From Verrucomicrobiota bacterium (lineage in GTDB: Bacteria; Verrucomicrobiota; Verrucomicrobiia; CAIQCK01), in contig JAPLTX010000045.1 of assembly GCA_026397915.1 (NCBI GenBank), positions 152,561-216,560 on the forward strand: DNA of 64,000 nucleotides, written 5' to 3'. The notes under the pieces are model-generated. The model was not told where the DNA came from, did not search any database, and worked only from the letters and a program-made list of their open reading frames with translations. Positions within the stretch are counted from its first letter, which is position 1. Every line of letters starts with the position of its first letter. The translations under genes were made by a program, and so were the position numbers. This document shows, one piece after another, positions 39,535-63,003 of the stretch.

Positions 39535-39593
39535 GGACAGACACTCCTGTCTGTCCTTCTATGGATTCACTGGCCAGACAAGAGTGTCTGCCC
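39535..39593. repeat. Two palindromes GGACAGACA-CTCC-TGTCTGTCC and GGCCAGACA-AGAG-TGTCTGCC, 37 nt apart, upstream of the 37862..39478 gene
   Basis: Same CAGACA-N4-TGTCTG core as the hairpin at 19320; loops of the 19320 and 39572 copies are reverse complements (opposite orientation). Confidence 0.6.
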
Positions 39594-39843
39594 TACATAA
39601 CTTCCCCTTTACCGCCCTTTCGCGTGTTTCGCGGACCAACTCAACTCCTCAAGCCTGCGCCCCACCAGCCCAACCCGCTTCCGAATGCGCGACGATATCC
39701 AGCCGCTTCGGATGAATGCATAGCGTGCCCGTGCCGGTGGGTGCCGCGAAATCACAACCTTCCGCAGGAGGGGCGAGACATTCCACATGAGTCCCCTTTC
39801 CATAACGCCGCGCGCGGCAGCTCGGCGATCCTGGGAAAACCTT

Positions 39844-40041
39844 CACCGCCGGCAGTCCCACACGGCTTTTACCGCGTCCTGCGTTTGAGTCAGCCGCCTG
39901 CGTTGCTCCCACTGCCGGCAGTCCCACCCGGCTCTTGCCTCGTGCCGGGTTCATGCCAGCCATCGGTGCTGCTCCCACCGCCGGCAATCCTATCTTGCTC
40001 TTGCCACGTCCTGGATTTGTCTCAGCCATCTGTTTAGCTCC
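39844..40041. repeat. Three tandem 66-nt imperfect direct repeats (about 75% identity) in the 720-bp divergent intergenic region
   Basis: CACCGCCGGCAGTCCCAC...GCTCC units at 39844, 39910, 39976. The minus-strand ORF 39649..40059 reads through them as 22-aa repeats (NPxRGKSRVGLPAVG...). Confidence 0.8.
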
Positions 40042-40198
40042 TGACACGTCCTTGTTCAACCGCGTCTCAAAACTGCCGCTCCTCTGTTTCTATCACGCTG
40101 CAAAATAAAAACACCAGCTTTTCGTTTCAGTTGCGTCGCGCGACCGTTGTTGCTAAACACCCATCGCCGTTTCGCAGACCAAACTTCGGAACCACATC

Positions 40199-41317
40199 AT
40201 GAACAAAACCGTTTGCGCACTACTCGCCACGCTCTTGCTCGCGCCGGCCTTATCCAATCTTCCTGCCGCCACCGCCGCGGAACCCGCCCGCCGCAACATC
40301 GTCTCGCCGGAAGTCCGCGCCGACCGCACCGTCACGTTCCGGCTTCTCGCGCCAAAGGTCGCGCAGGTCGTCCTCAACGCCGAGTTCGGACGCCAGCCGA
40401 TGACCAAGGACGACAGCGGCCTCTGGAGCGTCACCGTCGGCCCGCTGGATCCCGACATCTACGCCTACACCTTCAGCGTGGACGGCGTCACCACCGTGGA
40501 CCCGCTCAACGGCCTCGTGAAGACCGGCCGCTCCACGCAGAACCTCGTCGAGGTGCCCGCCGCGTCGCCCGCGTTCTACGCCCCGCGCAACGTCCCCCAC
40601 GGCGCCGTCACCGTCCAGTGGTATCACTCCAAGTCCCTCGGCAAGCTGCGCCGCATGCACGTCTATACGCCGCCCGGTTACGACCAGACTCGCAGCACAG
40701 AATTCCCCGTCCTCTATCTCCTGCACGGCTCTGGCGACGATGACAGCGGCTGGACATGGATCGGCCGCGCCAACTTCATCGCCGACAACCTCATAGCTGA
40801 ACACAAATCCAAGCCCATGATCATCGTCATGCCGGCGGGCCACGCCCTCCCGCCGCCCGCTCCCGGCGAAGGCAAGGAGCACTACGGGCGCAACACCGTG
40901 GCGTTTCAGGACGACCTGCTCAAGGACATCACCCCCTTCGTCGAGCTACACTACCGCGTAGCATCCGGCCGCGAGCGTTGCGCACTCACCGGCCTCTCCA
41001 TGGGCGGCGGCCAATCCCTCGCCATCGGCCTGACCCACCTCGACCGGTTCGCGTGGATCGGCGCATTCAGCTCCGGCGGCGGCAGTCTCGGCGGCGACCC
41101 GGACAAACTGCTCGCAGACGCCAAAGAGATGAACAGCAAACTCCGCCTCCTCTGGATCGCCTGCGGCAAACAGGACTTCCTCTACAAGATCAACCAGGAG
41201 TTCGACGCCCTGCTCACCAGCCGTCAGATCACCCACGAGTTTCACGCCACCGAAGGCACCCACACCTGGCGGCTCTGGCGTCCCCACCTCCGCGACTTCC
41301 TCCAACGGCTCTTCTGA
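40199..41317 (+). CDS. Secreted CE1-family esterase (feruloyl/acetyl-xylan-esterase-like) with N-terminal Ig-like/CBM48-like domain
   Basis: Signal peptide; GLSMGG nucleophile elbow, VLYLLHGSGDDD, C-terminal His region; 372 aa. Confidence 0.8.
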   Translation: MNKTVCALLATLLLAPALSNLPAATAAEPARRNIVSPEVRADRTVTFRLLAPKVAQVVLNAEFGRQPMTKDDSGLWSVTVGPLDPDIYAYTFSVDGVTTVDPLNGLVKTGRSTQNLVEVPAASPAFYAPRNVPHGAVTVQWYHSKSLGKLRRMHVYTPPGYDQTRSTEFPVLYLLHGSGDDDSGWTWIGRANFIADNLIAEHKSKPMIIVMPAGHALPPPAPGEGKEHYGRNTVAFQDDLLKDITPFVELHYRVASGRERCALTGLSMGGGQSLAIGLTHLDRFAWIGAFSSGGGSLGGDPDKLLADAKEMNSKLRLLWIACGKQDFLYKINQEFDALLTSRQITHEFHATEGTHTWRLWRPHLRDFLQRLF

Positions 41318-41324
41318 GAATTCC

Positions 41325-41400
41325 CCTGTAGGCCGCGTGCCCTCACGCGGCGAACCCATCTTCAACAAACCGCCGCGTCGGGGACGCGACCTACAATCCA
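41325..41400. repeat. TGTAGG-hairpin (GCCGCGTG-CCCT-CACGCGGC) plus left copy of a ~58-nt direct repeat; terminator-like position after the esterase
   Basis: 41343-41400 aligns with 42013-42072 (TCACGCGGC.AA.CC...GTC.GGGACGCG.CCTACA.TCC). Motif GGGACGCNNNCTACA also at 37838-37858. Confidence 0.55.
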
Positions 41401-41548
41401 TTGCCACAGGTAAGCTGTCCCCCAAGCGAAAATGAGTCCGGTCCGAGGCATCTGCCGGCTTGGACATGGTTTTGCCCCCCCTCTGACAAGCCAAGGTCAG
41501 CCTTGGACAAGCCATCTTTCGTCCCGCCAATAACCAAATCCGCGAAGG

Positions 41549-41805
41549 AAAAGGTTAATGGAGAGCTTCATAAAACTAAATCCCTCAATGAAAAGGTAAA
41601 TGAAGCGCCTCCTAAAACATCTTTCCTCAACAAAAAGGTAAATGGAAGGCGTCCTAAAACTAAATGATTGAAGGAAAAGGTTAATGGAGAGCGTTCTAAA
41701 ACATCTTTATTGAGGGAAAAGGTAAGAGAAACGACCAACAAAACTAAATCATTCAAGGAAAAGGTTAATGGAAAGGCTTCAAAAGGAAGAGAAAAGCCTC
41801 CAAAA
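41549..41805. repeat. AT-rich periodic array: six copies of core GAAAAGGTWAATGGARRGC at exactly 42-nt spacing, spacers alternating between two types (84-nt super-period)
   Basis: GGT of core at ~41553, 41595, 41637, 41679, 41721, 41763. Local GC is far below the genome background. The minus-strand ORF 41568..41822 is open through the array (14-aa repeats, TTG start); the plus strand has one TGA. Confidence 0.85.
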
Positions 41806-42012
41806 GCATGTTTTTGGCCCAAAAACCGCTTGGACGAGCCGGACTAGGCATTCCCCTGTGCAAAAATAGCCACTTCCAGCCCGGATTGCCCCTGTTCCGC
41901 GCCGCCGATGAGTCATTGTCTGAGGCAGATTCCCCACCGCCGCCCACATCGGAACCGCCGCCGAAAACCCCTCCTTTGCGCCTCTGCGCCTTTGCGTGAG
42001 ACTCCGTCATCT

Positions 42013-42072
42013 CCTTCACGCGGCAAAACCAACCTCACTCACCCATCCTGTCAGGGACGCGGCCTACATGCC
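42013..42072. repeat. Right copy of the ~58-nt direct repeat flanking the AT-rich array
   Basis: See 41325-41400. Confidence 0.5.
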
Positions 42073-42332
42073 ATGTGTTCCGTCATCTGGCCGCTAAAGG
42101 AAAGACAAAGGCGATGATTGCTTTCGATACCGTTTTCAATTTGACGAACCACGCTGATGAAAAATAGTATGCGCACAGGTGATATGACTGTGGGAGACTC
42201 AACGCAGGAGGCATGATGACCAGTGGTCCGAATAACACAGCAAACTCCTCTTCGCCTCTTGTCCCACAAAGTCCTCTAACCGTCGAACACCAGCAAACGT
42301 GCCTCAACCGCTCATGCTAGAAAGACGACCAC

Positions 42333-43169
42333 ATGCCACTGCCACCAGACTTCAAAGAAACACTCCGCCACAAGACGGATGAACAGCTTTACGATATGCT
42401 AGTTCACAAAGCTGATTATCTTCCTGAAACCCTTGATGCCACGAGAACAGAGCTAAACCGCCGAAACTTACCCGTCGAAGAACAAACCGAACCCGCGGTT
42501 CCCGTCGAGACCACAGAAGCCAAACCGCAAACGACAAAATTCCAAACAACTCTGACATTCATCGGCATCCTCTGCGCTATCCTCTTTGTCTCTGCAGTCT
42601 GTAGGGGAATTGTTAGAGATCTTATGAAGGGCTGGTTGCAATCAAGAAACACCGCAGAACAGGCTCCGCAAAGATACGAAGACCAAGATTGGCAAGGCAG
42701 GACTTGCAGCGGTCTAACTTTGCAGGCTCCATTCCCCTTGTTATCTCGCGGGGACAAATCGGCTGATTTCTCTCCAGGATTGCGAGCAACCATTGAACGC
42801 GCTGATGGGTTTGAGGCAAATACGCGATCCATCAAGGTCACCGTCGATTGCACCGTCTACAAAGAAAGTGCCAAACTAGATCCGAATGTTGACCGCGCCC
42901 TCGACCGCTCTATAAACGCTGTATTGAATGTCGCCGCCAAACAAGCAGGCATAAACAACCCAGATTGGAAAGTTGACAGGATCGAGGTCAGCGGTCTGAA
43001 CGCAAGGCGTGCAAACTGGGTGGTAAAACGAACTCCTCAGTATATCTACTGCGCAGTCGTTGTAATCCAAAAAGGAAAGCGATCATGGATGGTTGTAGCC
43101 TTTTCCGAATCCGAAGACGCGGCAGTGATTGTCAATCGGATGCTGGATTCAATTCAGATCAGCCACTGA
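42333..43169 (+). CDS. Hypothetical single-pass membrane protein, lower GC than surroundings
   Basis: 278 aa, one TM (FIGILCAILFVSAVC), no recognisable domain; composition distinct from neighbouring genes. Confidence 0.5.
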   Translation: MPLPPDFKETLRHKTDEQLYDMLVHKADYLPETLDATRTELNRRNLPVEEQTEPAVPVETTEAKPQTTKFQTTLTFIGILCAILFVSAVCRGIVRDLMKGWLQSRNTAEQAPQRYEDQDWQGRTCSGLTLQAPFPLLSRGDKSADFSPGLRATIERADGFEANTRSIKVTVDCTVYKESAKLDPNVDRALDRSINAVLNVAAKQAGINNPDWKVDRIEVSGLNARRANWVVKRTPQYIYCAVVVIQKGKRSWMVVAFSESEDAAVIVNRMLDSIQISH

Positions 43170-43242
43170 ATATGTTCATCCGCGAAGTGGATCGCACCGA
43201 CTTGGGCGCACGGTCATACTACGTCGCAATAAGTGAGCACGC

Positions 43243-43360
43243 TAAATCCCAAACCCGTCCCGATACTGCTTGCGGATGAGGGCGTCGGCTTCGGGGACAT
43301 TCTTGGCGCGCATCTTGGCGGCGTCCCATTCGATCCGCTTCTGCAGGCGCGTGGCAAGGC
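43243..43360 (-). pseudogene. 3'-terminal remnant (about 38 codons) of a Gfo/Idh/MocA oxidoreductase paralog
   Basis: Translates to LATRLQKRIEWDAAKMRAKNVPEADALIRKQYRDGFGI*, matching the C-terminus of 44736..46133 (…LATRLQKRIEWDAAKMRAKNCPEADALIRKHYRDGFGI*). Nucleotide identity is about 90% over ~115 nt; no upstream body. Confidence 0.7.
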
Positions 43361-44543: not shown

Positions 44544-44735
44544 TTGAGTTCTTCCTTGCAGCACTTTGCTAAATCACACTCTCGGCTACAATGAGGGGAA
44601 CGTTGCACACCACCTCTCTGTTGTCAAAGGCCAACCCTGCACGAGAAATGCCGAGCCAAAGAGAAACACAGGTTGGCGCCGGCCCTAGCCGCCATCGTCA
44701 CCGCTCTGGTTGTGAAAGCCGCCGAAAGTTTCCCG

Positions 44736-46133
44736 CTAGATTCCAAACCCGTCGCGGTAATGTTTGCGGATGAGGGCGTCGGCTTCGGGGCAGTTCTTGG
44801 CGCGCATCTTGGCGGCATCCCATTCGATCCGCTTCTGCAAACGCGTGGCGAGGTTGCCCACCAGCAACGCCTCGGTGTAGGGACCGGAGTAGGCAAAGCC
44901 GGCCTTGGCGTTCTGGGGCTTGCGCGCTTTGCAGGCATCCACCCATTCGGCGCGATGGCCGATGGAGCGCGCGAGGGTCTTGGGCGGACGCTTGAAGTCC
45001 TGCATCCGGCTCTCCGGGAGCAGTCGCGGCGCGCCACACCAGCCGCCGCAGAGCATGGAGCCTTTGTCGCCGATGAAGAGGATGCCGTTGTCGTCCAGCT
45101 CGCGGCCGGCTTCGAGGTCGGCGGGGCGGGCGGGTTTCTTGCCGCCGTCATACCAGTAGAGTTTGAGGGCGGGACGCCCGCCCTTGGCGGCAAACTCGTA
45201 GGTGATGATCTGCCACAAGGGATAGGATTCCTTCTTGAGCGGGCTGCTCTGGCATTCGGTGGCAACGGGCGCGCCGAGGTCGAGGGCGAAGAAGGCGGGG
45301 TCCATGTTGTGGATGGCCATGTCGCCCATCGCGCCAGTGCCGAAGTCGAACCAGCCGCGCCATGTCCTCGGAAGGTAGCAGGGATGATACGGCCGTTCCG
45401 GGGCCGCGCCGAGCCAGAGGTTCCAGTCGAGCTTCTCGGGAACGGGCGGCGTCTCGGTGGGGCGGTCGAGGTCCTGCGTCCAGAACTTGCCGGGACGGTC
45501 GCTCCAGCAATGGACTTCCTTGACGGTGCCGATGGCGCCGGCTTGGATCCATTCCTTGGTGAGGCGCAGGCCCTCGCTGGCGTGGCCGTTGTTGCCCATC
45601 TGGGTGACGAGGCCGGTCTTCTTGGCCATGCGGGTCATGACGCGCGCCTCCTCGATGGAGTGGGCCATCGGTTTCTCGACATAGACGTGTTTGCCGGCGC
45701 GCAACGCGGCCATGGTGATGGGCGCGTGCATGTGGTCCGGCGTGCCGATGACGACGGCGTCCACGTCCTTGAGCTTCTCCAGCATGACGCGGTAATCGGT
45801 GAACTTCTCGGCGTTGGGGAAGGTCTTGGCGGTGCGCTCGGCGTATTTCCAATCCACGTCGCAGAGGGCGACGATGTTCTGGCTGGAGATGGCCGGGTCG
45901 CGCAACACTCCCCCACCCTGCCCGCCGATGCCGATGCCCGCGACGTTGAGCTTCTCGCTCGGCGGAATGACGCCCCGGCCGAGGACGGAGCGCGGCACGA
46001 TCTGAAAGGCGAAGGTCGCGACCGTCGCGCGGCGAAGGAAACTGCGGCGGGAGATGGAGGAAGAGTTCTGTGTATTCATTGGTGGTGAAGTTTCGGGAAG
46101 CATTAGCGGAGCGGCAGGAGGATTCAATCCCAT
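44736..46133 (-). CDS. Tat-signal Gfo/Idh/MocA-family NAD(P)-dependent oxidoreductase
   Basis: RRSFLRRATVATFAF Tat motif; GIGIGGQGGG Rossmann; full-length family resemblance. ATG at 46133 sits in GGACTACTATG directly after the hairpin element. Confidence 0.85.
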   Translation of the reverse strand: MGLNPPAAPLMLPETSPPMNTQNSSSISRRSFLRRATVATFAFQIVPRSVLGRGVIPPSEKLNVAGIGIGGQGGGVLRDPAISSQNIVALCDVDWKYAERTAKTFPNAEKFTDYRVMLEKLKDVDAVVIGTPDHMHAPITMAALRAGKHVYVEKPMAHSIEEARVMTRMAKKTGLVTQMGNNGHASEGLRLTKEWIQAGAIGTVKEVHCWSDRPGKFWTQDLDRPTETPPVPEKLDWNLWLGAAPERPYHPCYLPRTWRGWFDFGTGAMGDMAIHNMDPAFFALDLGAPVATECQSSPLKKESYPLWQIITYEFAAKGGRPALKLYWYDGGKKPARPADLEAGRELDDNGILFIGDKGSMLCGGWCGAPRLLPESRMQDFKRPPKTLARSIGHRAEWVDACKARKPQNAKAGFAYSGPYTEALLVGNLATRLQKRIEWDAAKMRAKNCPEADALIRKHYRDGFGI

Positions 46134-58126: not shown

Positions 58127-59552
58127 GAGAACCCGAATTGCGTCGCTCTGGCCGTTGATCATTTGTTTCGCTCTTGTCTGGCCGCTGGTTTTCTGTCTCG
58201 CCGATCCGTGTTCTACCTGTCGAGGCACGGGCACCATTACATGCCCGCAATGCGGAGGAAGCGGGATTTCCCGCTGGACAACCATTCGCGGCCAGCGCGC
58301 GGCCTACGGCTGCGAGAATTGCGGCGGCATCAGCGGCGATCCAATGAGAGGCACGGGACGGCAAGGTCGTGGGCGCGTTCGTTGTCCAACTTGCGGTGGT
58401 TCGGGACAAACGCAGTCACAGTCATCCCCAGTCAACAATCCCTATCCGTCGCCCGACATGGAAGCGGAGCGACAGAGACAGTTGGAGGAACAGCAGAAGA
58501 AGGAACAAGAGGAGGCGAAGCGCAAGCGCGAGGAGTTCGAGAAGACGAAGCAGGAAGTCTTAAAGAGCATGAAGGGGATCGCGGAGAACGGCCTCGGCCT
58601 CAAAGATGTCCGCACCACGGACGCCCTTGGACTGAAGGGAATCGGAGACGCAAAGGTCGGCACCGCGGGGTTGAAGGGGATGGACGACAGCGGGTCGCGA
58701 CCGTCCGTTGGTTCCTCAACGGTTGATCTCCGGCACTTGGACCCAAACAAACCCATCACAGTTGATCCGAACGTCGTGAAAGGTCAGGAACGGGTCTTCC
58801 CGGTTCAAACCGACCCGGGGACGTTCAAGAACGCCAATTACAACAAAGGCTTTGACGCCATCCTGCGTGGCGATCCTGATTCTGCCGTGCTGTGTTTCGA
58901 GCAGGCGAGCAAAGAGCGCCCTGGTGATCCTCTGATTCGTAACGCGCTGCTGCTGGCCAAAGGCCTTGTCAACGTGCACCGACAACGGGAAGAGGACAAC
59001 CGGAAGAAGGCGGCGGCGCAGCCCGCCTCGAATGACGACAGCGCCTTGAAGTTGGCCATTGATGCAACCCCTGCCATGGAGCAGGGCGACTACGACACCG
59101 CCCTTCGCATGCTGAAACAAGCGCAAGCCATCAGCCCGAACAACCCCAACATCGCCAACATGCTGCGCTTTGTTCAAGGAGTGAAAGCGAAAGACGACAG
59201 CGCCATGAGCTATGCCGCTGATGCATGCAACTTCGTCAAACCAGGCCAATACAACACCGCCCTTCGCATCCTGAAACAGGCGCAAGCCATCAGCCCGAAC
59301 AACACCAACATCGCCGACACGATTCGCTACGTCGAAGGACAGAAGGCCAAAGACGACAGCGCCCTGAAGCTGTCCAGAGAGGCATATTATGCACTTGGGG
59401 AAGGCGACCTCGACAGGGCGTTTCGCGCATTGAAACAGGCACACGACATTTTGCCGAACGATCGGGGTTTTGCCGATGCACTCAACTTTGTTGAAGGGGC
59501 GGCAATGGAACGCGCGAATGCGGCCAAGAAGACGCCACCCGACAGAAAATAA
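58127..59552 (+). CDS. Signal/anchor + DnaJ-type CxxCxGxG zinc-finger domain + coiled coil + three ~38-aa helical repeats (ALRxLKQAQAISPNNxNIA...KAKDDSA)
   Basis: CSTCRGTGTITCPQCGGSG, CENCGG, CPTCGGSG = four CxxC(x)G motifs as in the DnaJ central domain; EQQKKEQEEAKRKREEFEK coiled coil. The ORF opens at 58041; Met 58127 precedes the hydrophobic segment. Confidence 0.6.
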
Positions 59553-62307: not shown

Positions 62308-63003
62308 TCAAATGTCGGTTGACCCGGCTCGGAGATGGGTGGACGGGTTAATGTTTGACGGAGTTCTCGCCGTGCTGACGATGGTGTCGCTGAGTTGTTG
62401 AGTTGGAACATCTCCCAGCGGGCCTTTGAAGCAGGAGACGAGAATTGGAAGATGGCAGTTAGCAGTTTGGAGTGGGGGCGGGACGGACGCGGCTCGGATG
62501 ATAATGTGAGCGGGAGCGGGCAGAACGGGCAGAACAGCGAGAATATGCGAAAATAGGCCATTTTCTTCGACTTGGAGGGTTTCCACGCCGTCGCAAGAGA
62601 TCTTCTCGCCGCTGCAAGGGTCAGCCGCGCCGCCGTAAGATTCCGCTGCGCCGCCGCACGCGTCCGCCGGGCCGTTGCAAGGGGTGCTCGTGCCGTCGCA
62701 AGGGTCGTCCGGGCGGATGCAACGGGTGTCTGACCCGCTGTAAGAGTCAGCCGCGCCGATGTAATGGTCCGGCGGACGGGTGTAAGCTATCTCCGGGCGG
62801 ATGCAAATACTCTCCGGGGCAATGTAAGCATCCTTCGGGCGGATGTAAGGGTTGTCCGGGCCGATGTCACAAACCTCCGGGCGCGAGTGCCTATTTCCAT
62901 CCGTAGCAACAGTCGCTGGCGGGTGGTTGCGAGGTCTATGGCCGCGAAACCGCCGTTCAGACGGATCGTGAGACGGGCGCGGCGCGCCTGTCGGATCATT
63001 CAC
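62308..63003 (-). CDS. Cys/Tyr-rich heptad-repeat protein (13 tandem [Y/C]-[I/T]-[R/G]-[P/A]-x-[D/E]-x units) encoded by a 21-nt tandem DNA repeat
   Basis: YIRPKDA YIAPESI CIRPEIA YTRPPDH YIGAADS YSGSDTR CIRPDDP CDGTSTP CNGPADA CGGAAES YGGAADP CSGEKIS CDGVETL. Minus-strand third-codon positions are GC-rich (genome-like), whereas the overlapping plus ORF 62764..63069 has mixed third positions. 29 nt downstream of the SIAE stop. Confidence 0.5.
   Translation of the reverse strand: MNDPTGAPRPSHDPSERRFRGHRPRNHPPATVATDGNRHSRPEVCDIGPDNPYIRPKDAYIAPESICIRPEIAYTRPPDHYIGAADSYSGSDTRCIRPDDPCDGTSTPCNGPADACGGAAESYGGAADPCSGEKISCDGVETLQVEENGLFSHILAVLPVLPAPAHIIIRAASVPPPLQTANCHLPILVSCFKGPLGDVPTQQLSDTIVSTARTPSNINPSTHLRAGSTDI
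62584..62895. repeat. About 15 tandem copies of a degenerate 21-nt repeat (consensus CCGGGCGGATGTAAGNNTNNTC)
   Basis: Visible periodic CGGGCGGATGCAA / CGGGCGGATGTAA units; lies inside the 62308..63003 CDS. Confidence 0.8.

Follow-up and report, generated by a model that had tools for sequence, protein, structure and literature searches.

The 64,000-nucleotide (nt) stretch of DNA analyzed here, called the window, comes from an uncultured Verrucomicrobiota bacterium (assembly GCA_026397915.1, contig JAPLTX010000045.1, positions 152,561 to 216,560). Between an esterase gene (40199-41317) and a 278-amino-acid (aa) orphan open reading frame (ORFan; 42333-43169), it carries an exactly phased, AT-rich tandem array. 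We conclude that this feature is an orphan noncoding tandem-repeat array, or minisatellite, on a horizontally acquired low-GC cassette. We tentatively favor a DNA-level role for the array, present or past, in which its units are phased binding sites or serve an architectural purpose; a purely relic array is almost equally likely. The parts of the array and a palindrome upstream of it are as follows.

41528-41800, plus strand: tandem array, 6.5 units of exactly 42 nt, with an 84-nt superperiod
41548-41566, plus strand: core of unit 1, GAAAAGGTTAATGGAGAGC; later cores start at 41590, 41632, 41674, 41716 (degenerate), and 41758
41491-41506, no strand assigned: perfect palindrome CCAAGG-TCAG-CCTTGG upstream of the array, between direct GACAAGCC repeats

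Tandem Repeats Finder (TRF) resolved positions 41544-41772 both as 4.3 copies of a 42-nt period (72% matches, 0% indels) and as 2.7 copies of an 84-nt period (77% matches, 1% indels). The 42-nt unit has the consensus T.AAgGAAAAGGT.AATGgA..Gc.T.ctAAAAC.a.aT.a. and contains two conserved blocks, the 15-nt core GAAAAGGTWAATGGA and the motif TAAAAC; pairwise identity between units of the array is 55 to 79%. With at most 2 mismatches, the 19-nt core GAAAAGGTWAATGGARRGC was found to start at 41548, 41590, 41632, 41674, and 41758, compared with 0.03 matches expected from shuffled sequences. Erosion is visible in units 5 and 6, only AAAAGGTAA being left of the core of unit 5 (41716), and a half unit is discernible at the left end of the array (41528-41548). 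The self-match of the array reached 0.63 to 0.67 at lags of 42, 84, and 126, against a background of 0.29. No hidden 21-nt subperiod was found in the array, the lag-21 self-match being 0.317 (z = 0.6 relative to the same background). The spacers are of two alternating types, CTAAAAC-TAAAT and CTAAAAC-ATCTTT. The original prediction, made by reading the sequence without database searches, had described a sixfold array with an exact 42-nt period, an 84-nt superperiod, and two spacer types; the TRF results, core matches, self-match lags, and unit alignment bear out this description.

The GC content of the array (0.366) is far below that of the 64-kb window (0.615), and its plus strand is composed of 0.44 A, 0.21 G, 0.19 T, and 0.16 C. 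The same prediction had placed the array in a low-GC segment spanning the whole distance between two flanking repeats, within a proposed interval of 41343-42072. Low GC content holds for the array but not for its two sides: the stretches of 126 nt and 212 nt that separate it from the flanking repeats have a GC content of 0.595, near the window mean, and the array is the sole AT-rich part of the interval. Folding of the palindrome at 41491-41506 (−8.5 kcal/mol; z = −1.7) was not significant.

The array is part of a strain-specific, low-GC cassette, and the locus is a hot spot of cassette exchange. In its 90% cluster, the esterase (PF00756; MCX6900246.1, locus tags NT105_) has one companion, P0124, and the 5.8-kb contig that carries it (JGI 3300013092; L263) is the closest relative found. 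By blastn, L263 is 92.6% identical to the window at the nucleotide level over 40109-41409, including a repetitive extragenic palindromic (REP) doublet that follows the esterase gene. Homology stops at window position 41409 and restarts at 43242, in a duplicate fragment of a GFO/IDH/MocA gene; the two sequences are wholly different between these anchors, and colinearity returns from 44729 and continues through the GFO/IDH/MocA gene itself. From these homology limits, the variable unit is 41410-43241, which is larger than the interval proposed earlier and is not bounded by copies of the hairpin-forming REP doublet (REPIN). The cassette, its right edge, and the order of features in the two genomes are as follows.

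41410-43241, no strand assigned: strain-specific low-GC cassette, 1,832 nt, GC 0.50, holding the array, a decayed REPIN copy, and the 278-aa ORFan
43242-43359, minus strand: duplicate of the GFO/IDH/MocA 3' end, 118 nt, 90% identical to 44734-44853, at the right edge of the variable cassette
Order in the window: REP doublet; 1,832-nt cassette (GC 0.50); 118-nt duplicate of the GFO 3' end; protease-like gene; GFO
Order in L263: REP doublet; 793-nt cassette (GC 0.49); same GFO 3' fragment; ParE/Phd; GFO

The cassette (GC 0.50) differs in composition from the backbone (~0.62), and the 793-nt cassette of L263 holds an unrelated 218-aa orphan gene. The GFO/IDH/MocA duplicate begins exactly at the gene's stop codon, and L263 carries the same fragment (2169-2248 versus 2775-2900). 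In the more distant L124, the GFO/IDH/MocA gene of the window has an 87%-identical ortholog; in remoter relatives, this interval is occupied by other genes, among them one for a PQQ propeller. The array is absent from L263 and from five other relatives, that is, from all 6 with readable esterase loci, in agreement with the prediction of foreign-looking, strain-specific DNA. The predicted insertion limits (41343-42072) did not hold, since the variable unit in the L263 comparison is 1.83 kb long, and an empty site keeping one copy of a ~58-nt flanking repeat, as such an insertion would have left, was found at none of the relatives' esterase loci.

We propose that a 1.8-kb low-GC cassette was probably acquired horizontally into a hypervariable slot reaching from the REP doublet of the esterase to the GFO/IDH/MocA 3'-end duplicate. 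The array would have grown by tandem duplication, first of the 42-nt unit and then of the 84-nt double unit, and its units may later have diverged by 21 to 45% through point changes with the exact 42-nt register kept. In a separate observation, what lies between the GFO duplicate and the intact gene end differs between the strains, being a 387-aa protease-like gene in the window but a ParE/Phd toxin-antitoxin pair in L263. This arrangement looks like a second cassette slot delimited by the duplicated gene end, with no integrase evident. No tRNA gene lies in the 64-kb window, and tRNA-linked integration was accordingly rejected.

The repeats that flank the array are GTAG-tagged palindromes of the REP/REPIN type, with copies counted within the 64-kb window only.

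41327-41395, no strand assigned: intact REP doublet (REPIN-like, GTAG ends outward), recognized by its fold, GTAG motif, and palindrome
42013-42074, no strand assigned: decayed copy of the right part of the REPIN, with CCTACA kept and the hairpin lost

The intact doublet starts 10 nt past the esterase stop codon and is laid out as TGTAGG-GCCGCGTG-CCCT-CACGCGGC, an 18-nt spacer, and then an inverted copy. With GTAG at one end of a short G+C-rich palindrome and an inverted partner, it fits the definition of GTAG-tagged REPs, families of which have been reported in the verrucomicrobium Opitutus terrae (PMC3733652). The left element folds into one long hairpin (−40.7 kcal/mol; z = −6.2). Positions 41340-41401 and 42013-42074 match in direct orientation over 62 nt with 73% identity and no gaps, and both repeats end 6 nt past GTAG; the right copy has no fold (z = +1.25). 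Thus, the direct repeats and the left hairpin, both described previously as TGTAGG hairpin-bearing flanks, are present, but the right copy no longer folds. There are 3 exact copies of GTAGGYCGCGTSCC in the window, all at the array locus.

Comparison with relatives revealed what these flanks are. The left REP doublet is kept in L263, a GTAG palindrome doublet of another sequence stands in its place past the esterase in the relatives L124 to L126, and esterase orthologs with 76 to 81% protein identity are followed directly after the stop codon by their own, differing GTAG palindromes. Several of the relatives' contigs break inside their GTAG palindromes, consistent with dispersed repeats. Because related genomes carry their own GTAG palindromes at the same position, the flanks are ordinary REP/REPIN-type elements rather than target-site duplications, and the earlier suggestion that an insertion had duplicated them is set aside. 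Between the array and the decayed REPIN, 41848-41859 (GCATTCCCCTGT) and 41884-41895 (GATTGCCCCTGT) repeat the sequence found before the left REP (GAATTCCCCTGT-AGG at 41318), and no REP follows either of them; these motifs may be footprints of lost REP copies.

Searches for related arrays consisted of pattern scans of public collections of genome and metagenome contigs (at least 120 matches each) and of viral contigs (11 and 2 loci). The scan patterns were too permissive. Among the matches listed, none was a homolog of the array; all were unrelated, comprising (GGTAAAA)n and (GTAAAG)n microsatellites, 21-nt iterons, K/E-rich coding repeats, and a phage gene junction. A blastn search with 41400-42100 against 259 loci returned only L001, a Logan contig of the same genome, and a search in distant mode against plasmids and phages returned no match. 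Contig L001 (SRR20698641) corresponds to window positions 41846-43329, the ORFan plus 487 nt upstream, with 100% identity over the compared stretch; its left end is 46 nt beyond the right end of the array, and this independent assembly therefore covers the ORFan and not the array. Two arrays encountered in the scans are unrelated to that of the window save for the 9-mer used as bait: a Luteolibacter metagenome-assembled genome (MAG) has more than 25 copies of the 21-nt GACAAAAGGTTAGGTGACGAA, switching midway to GTCACACAGGTTAGTGGCCTC (L065, 860-1400), and an Opitutae MAG has 6 copies of the 21-nt GAGTAAAAGGTAAGCTCGNNG at a contig end (L007, 41-175).

What could such an array do at the level of DNA? 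Forty-two nucleotides correspond to four turns of B-DNA. A row of sites on the same face of the helix, each comprising the 15-nt core GAAAAGGTWAATGGA and TAAAAC and set on intrinsically bendable AT-rich DNA, would serve a putative protein, by analogy with plasmid centromere or iteron arrays or as decoy or architectural sites. The hints of constraint are limited to clustered invariant positions and the near-absence of indels. Indels amount to 0 to 1% at 72 to 77% matches, compared with 5% in a similarly diverged 21-nt array elsewhere in the window, and the invariant columns of the unit cluster, with a run of 7 (P = 0.007) and a best 15-nt window at P = 0.014. An iteron-like binding array is suggested by two properties, phasing and core conservation, and we infer a binding-site function from these.

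Several observations weigh against such a role. Neither a candidate binding protein nor a partner gene was found near the array among the adjoining ORFs (esterase, ORFan, protease-like protein, GFO/IDH/MocA protein, and NAD synthase), as searched with Pfam and PADLOC. No DnaA box (at most 1 mismatch) lies within 2 kb of the array, and there is no inverted repeat within the unit; inverted matches join different units or lie just past the array end. The constraint statistics are post hoc and are based on six units of a single array, with no homologous array among the matches listed. When curvature was calculated over the 64-kb window with a wedge model, the maximum among 252-nt tiles fell in the array, but a shuffled 42-nt unit repeated six times is equally curved (control fraction, 0.44), and the curvature follows from the period alone.

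More specific DNA-level assignments were considered and rejected. Phased A-tracts were discarded because AA periodicity at 10.5 nt is not prominent, and a replication origin was discarded for lack of DnaA boxes near the array. The adjoining ORFs include no Rep, ParA/ParB, ParM/ParR, regulator, or integrase protein (for par, 36 to 48 kb was searched with Pfam). A plasmid iteron origin would have a two-turn spacing of ~17 to 22 bp, whereas the period here is 42 with no lag-21 signal and no rep gene; a sopC/parS-type partition centromere does not fit a unit without an internal inverted repeat or nearby par genes. A CRISPR array is ruled out, as had been predicted: CRISPR repeats are near-identical, 23 to 55 nt long, and set apart by unique spacers of similar length, whereas here the core is ~15 to 19 nt and two related kinds of spacer take turns, such that the whole 42/84-nt unit is repeated, and the adjoining ORFs have no Cas matches in Pfam or PADLOC.

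The scans also recovered 21-nt arrays with the core AAAAGGTWATA(G/A)TT directly upstream of Rep3 genes (PF01051 plus PF21205; E ~1e-41) in Planococcus donghaensis (L030, 3250-3335), Planomicrobium okeanokoites (L010, ~800-1000), and a Deltaproteobacteria MAG (L057, 3336-3430). These appear to be genuine plasmid iterons with a core common to distant phyla. Similar 21-nt arrays occur at Flavobacterium loci L006, L069, and L096 and at a Bacillota MAG locus, L032.

The array may instead be a functionless relic: a tandem duplication, now decaying, that either came in with foreign AT-rich DNA or formed within it and has simply been tolerated in a recombination-prone intergenic slot. We regard this explanation as possible without being probable. 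In its favor are the lack of any homolog in the searched data, of a partner gene, and of an RNA or coding signal; the low identity of the units (just 55 to 79%) and the visible erosion of units 5 and 6; the patchwork nature of the locus, with its decayed REP copies and duplicated gene end; and the unrelated cassettes that relatives hold at the same place. A relic would be less expected to show nearly no indels despite ~30% substitution divergence, or invariant positions clustered in the 15-nt core, although the sample is small in both cases.

An RNA-level reading brings in the ORFan downstream of the array and a promoter-like site before it.

42333-43169, plus strand: 278-aa ORFan (MCX6900248.1, NT105_16310), one predicted transmembrane helix, GC 0.50
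42141-42170, plus strand: sigma-70-like promoter match (TTGACG, 16- to 18-nt spacer, AATAGT/TAGTAT), a consensus match only

If the plus strand is transcribed, the array might act as a type III-like antitoxin for the ORFan or, through its A(N)GGA motifs, as a sponge for a protein of the Csr/Rsm kind. We consider this unlikely. Published type III antitoxins have repeats of 31 to 62 nt in 1.9 to 5.6 copies, toxins of 45 to 288 aa, and gaps of up to 340 bp (PMC3401426); the 42-nt unit lies within that repeat range, and taken together the ranges come close to fitting this locus. The array and the ORFan are on the same strand of a single mobile low-GC cassette; AAAA occurs in each of the two conserved blocks, and cleavage by type III toxins is at A-rich sites (PMC5086642); and the sister strain has the ParE/Phd toxin-antitoxin pair in the adjoining slot. 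However, functional antitoxin repeats are generally much more alike than units that are 55 to 79% identical, and the array lies 530 nt from the ORFan, with the decayed REPIN and the separate promoter-like site at 42141-42170 in between. That candidate promoter is 160 nt ahead of the ORFan and would allow the latter to be transcribed separately from the array.

The ORFan itself has no homologs among 5.8 billion proteins and no Pfam, PADLOC, PHROG, or PDB match. It has a transmembrane helix and matches none of ToxN, CptN, and TenpN in Pfam or PADLOC; an AlphaFold2 model made without an alignment (pLDDT, 45) was unusable for fold comparison. NCBI accessions skip from MCX6900246 (esterase) to MCX6900248 (ORFan) across 41318-42332, a gap that suggests one NCBI-annotated coding sequence in the interval containing the array.

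Structural and regulatory signals at the RNA level were likewise lacking. Compared with Rfam, the array matched no family at the gathering score and none of relevance at E ≤ 10. Whole-array folds gave z scores of −2.0 and −2.5, and the consensus fold of three 84-nt copies gave −0.01 and −3.5 kcal/mol, that is, essentially no common structure. A search for promoter-like sites inside the array or ahead of it was negative, as was one for plus-strand terminator-like sites between it and the ORFan; a palindrome just after the array (41810-41826) has no U-tract and folds no better than shuffled sequences. A sigma-54 promoter, TGGACATGGTTTTGC at 41461 (TGG-N8-TTGC), was rejected as being at chance level, with 14 such sites in the window and 11.7 expected. 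The A(N)GGA motifs are in excess (9 in 273 nt versus 2.3 expected) because the motif lies inside the repeated core. A Csr/Rsm sponge found no match to a curated family and no conserved hairpins presenting GGA, and no csrA-like ORF or csrA gene is present in the 64-kb window.

A broader version, which we judge very unlikely, would have the array and the ORFan form a novel two-part mobile module, either type III-like or of an abortive-infection kind with a membrane toxin, or would make the array a cassette-borne centromere-like or decoy array. In such a two-part module, 42-nt A-rich RNA repeats would neutralize a membrane-anchored toxin with a fold unlike those of ToxN, CptN, and TenpN.

It is also quite unlikely that the flanks are REPIN copies produced by the insertion, at 41402-42012, of a small nonautonomous element, either resembling a miniature inverted-repeat transposable element (MITE) or mobilized through REPINs. 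The 62-nt direct repeats, 73% identical and both ending 6 nt past GTAG, could be read in this way, and L263 homology ends 8 nt after the left repeat. However, strain-specific DNA runs to 43241 instead of 42074, such that the right repeat lies inside the variable cassette, and the repeats are ordinary GTAG REP elements independently present at this position in relatives. In addition, the unique segment has neither terminal inverted repeats nor a transposase, and no second copy was found in the window or at any fetched locus.

A repeat-protein gene was rejected, and we consider it highly improbable that the array is a protein-coding repeat gene or the pseudogene of one, whether as a plus-strand 14-aa unit (EKVNGxxxKTxSLx), a minus-strand unit (PLTFSLNDLVL), or a string of mini-ORFs in plus frame 2. 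The open frames noted earlier are as described: the plus frame is open for ~148 codons with a single TGA (41665-41667), and the minus ORF (41568-41822) encodes 84 aa from a TTG start. The minus frame also has a stop inside unit 1, each frame thus being broken once, and TTG is the only start on offer. By our own calculation, the chance that a given frame stays open through a 14-codon unit at the composition of the array is ~0.35 to 0.54, so that 2 open frames of 6 match chance expectation. The ratio of nonsynonymous to synonymous substitution rates (dN/dS) among units is 0.87 in the plus frame, 1.43 in the minus frame, and 0.79 in the mini-ORF frame. Heterozygosity by codon position in the two open frames (.19/.31/.28 and.31/.19/.28) reveals no excess variation at third positions among the units, variation being block-wise. 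GC content at third codon positions (GC3) is 0.31 in the array, compared with 0.75 to 0.87 in native genes and 0.50 in the ORFan.

Homology offered little more to a coding interpretation. The plus ORF gave two weak repeat-versus-repeat matches (E = 7.8e-5 and 5.6e-4). In the second, the plus-strand unit and the 14-aa repeat TKVNAVSTKTxFLD of P0123 can be aligned in phase (42% identity, ungapped; whole-library E value), but a match of one repeat to another has inflated significance, Pro and Gly break the supposed coiled-coil repeat, and the units of the window also hold a stop codon. The minus ORF had no protein match even at E = 10, and the array ORFs and 20 candidate small-ORF products (at least 39 aa) from the esterase to the ORFan were absent from a 15-billion-protein collection by exact look-up. 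An intact ORF, purifying selection with host-like codons, and homologs, each expected of a protein-coding repeat gene, were all lacking, and the repeat-peptide gene entertained earlier was dropped on the strength of the dN/dS and GC3 values, the broken frames, and the absence of credible homologs.

The mini-ORFs deserve separate mention. At 41562-41700 in plus frame 2, each core reads as a Shine-Dalgarno (SD)-like AAGGA/AAAGG followed by ATG, giving the mini-ORFs MESFIKLNPSMKR, MKRLLKHLSSTKR, MEGVLKLND, and MESVLKHLY, the first two each running into the following one through TAAATG. In two phage contigs (L261 and L262), the AAAAGGTAAATGGA string forms a real gene junction. The core of the array thus resembles an SD, stop, start gene junction, a point in favor of coding, but the mini-ORFs vary in length (13, 13, 9, 9, none, and 33 aa). 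The array may have originated in a duplicated gene junction of AT-rich foreign DNA, and we retain a small probability that it is a dead coding remnant.

Elsewhere in the window, tandem repeats were found at 62607-62769 (21 nt × 7.8; 65% matches, 5% indels) and 59091-59379 (159 nt × 1.8; 82% matches). A GC-rich 66-nt tandem repeat at 39844-40030 (2.5 copies, 75% matches, no indels) sits within an ORF for a 158-aa protein without a Pfam match (39561-40037), just upstream of the esterase gene.

The array is chiefly of value as a negative example: exact phasing and two open frames can make an array resemble a gene, an RNA, or an iteron set although it fails every specific test. The locus is also an example of a compact hot spot for cassette exchange in an uncultured Verrucomicrobium, where a REP doublet and a low-GC cassette are followed by a duplicated gene end, a second cassette, and finally the intact gene. 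A protein that binds the 15-nt core, if one exists, would raise the significance of the array. If the array were transcribed and processed, it would point to a type III-like toxin-antitoxin module in Verrucomicrobiota, a phylum in which, to our knowledge, none has been described.

Among known systems, type III toxin-antitoxin loci have a similar unit length and copy number (ToxI, 5.5 × 36 nt; cptI, 40 to 48 nt; tenpI, 39 to 57 nt [PMC3401426]), and they share with this locus an array upstream of a same-strand ORF, mobile-looking DNA, and A-rich conserved blocks (PMC5086642). The locus differs from them in its diverged repeats, the missing terminator, the 530-nt gap, and a membrane ORFan unlike ToxN, CptN, and TenpN. 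The sopC site of the F plasmid resembles the array in having 12 direct 43-bp repeats, ~four helical turns each, with a short conserved core (PMC3177203); in contrast, the sopC unit contains a 16-bp inverted repeat for SopB and adjoins sopAB, and the unit described here has neither feature. Rep3-type iterons are likewise direct repeats with an AAAAGGTWA-containing core, but they have a 21-nt period, are near-identical, and abut a rep gene, whereas the array is 42-nt phased and diverged and is not accompanied by a rep gene, a DnaA box, or a matching extended core.

For the flanks alone, the closest likeness is to REPs, bacterial interspersed mosaic elements (BIMEs), and REPINs: GTAG followed by a G+C-rich palindrome, a head-to-head pair with an 18-nt spacer, a site just past a gene's stop codon, and decayed single copies nearby. 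Families of this kind are dispersed over a genome in high copy number and have an associated RAYT transposase; here, three copies are present in the 64-kb window, all at one locus. For the array itself, the comparison is with intergenic minisatellites, or variable-number tandem repeats (VNTRs), such as the mycobacterial interspersed repetitive units (MIRUs), which have 40- to 100-bp units between co-oriented genes and have been described as minisatellites (PMC3635867). Like MIRUs, the array is a direct tandem repeat between same-strand genes, with imperfect copies and no autonomous mobility genes. Unlike MIRUs, which form a dispersed multilocus family, it is single copy in all data searched, is strongly AT-rich relative to its host, and is not translationally linked to the flanking genes. 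Supply and coworkers are said to have described, in 1997, small ORFs with overlapping stop and start codons within MIRUs, an arrangement that resembles the TAAATG-linked mini-ORFs. In kind, the array belongs with the bacterial intergenic minisatellites associated with REP-rich variable regions, a known class.

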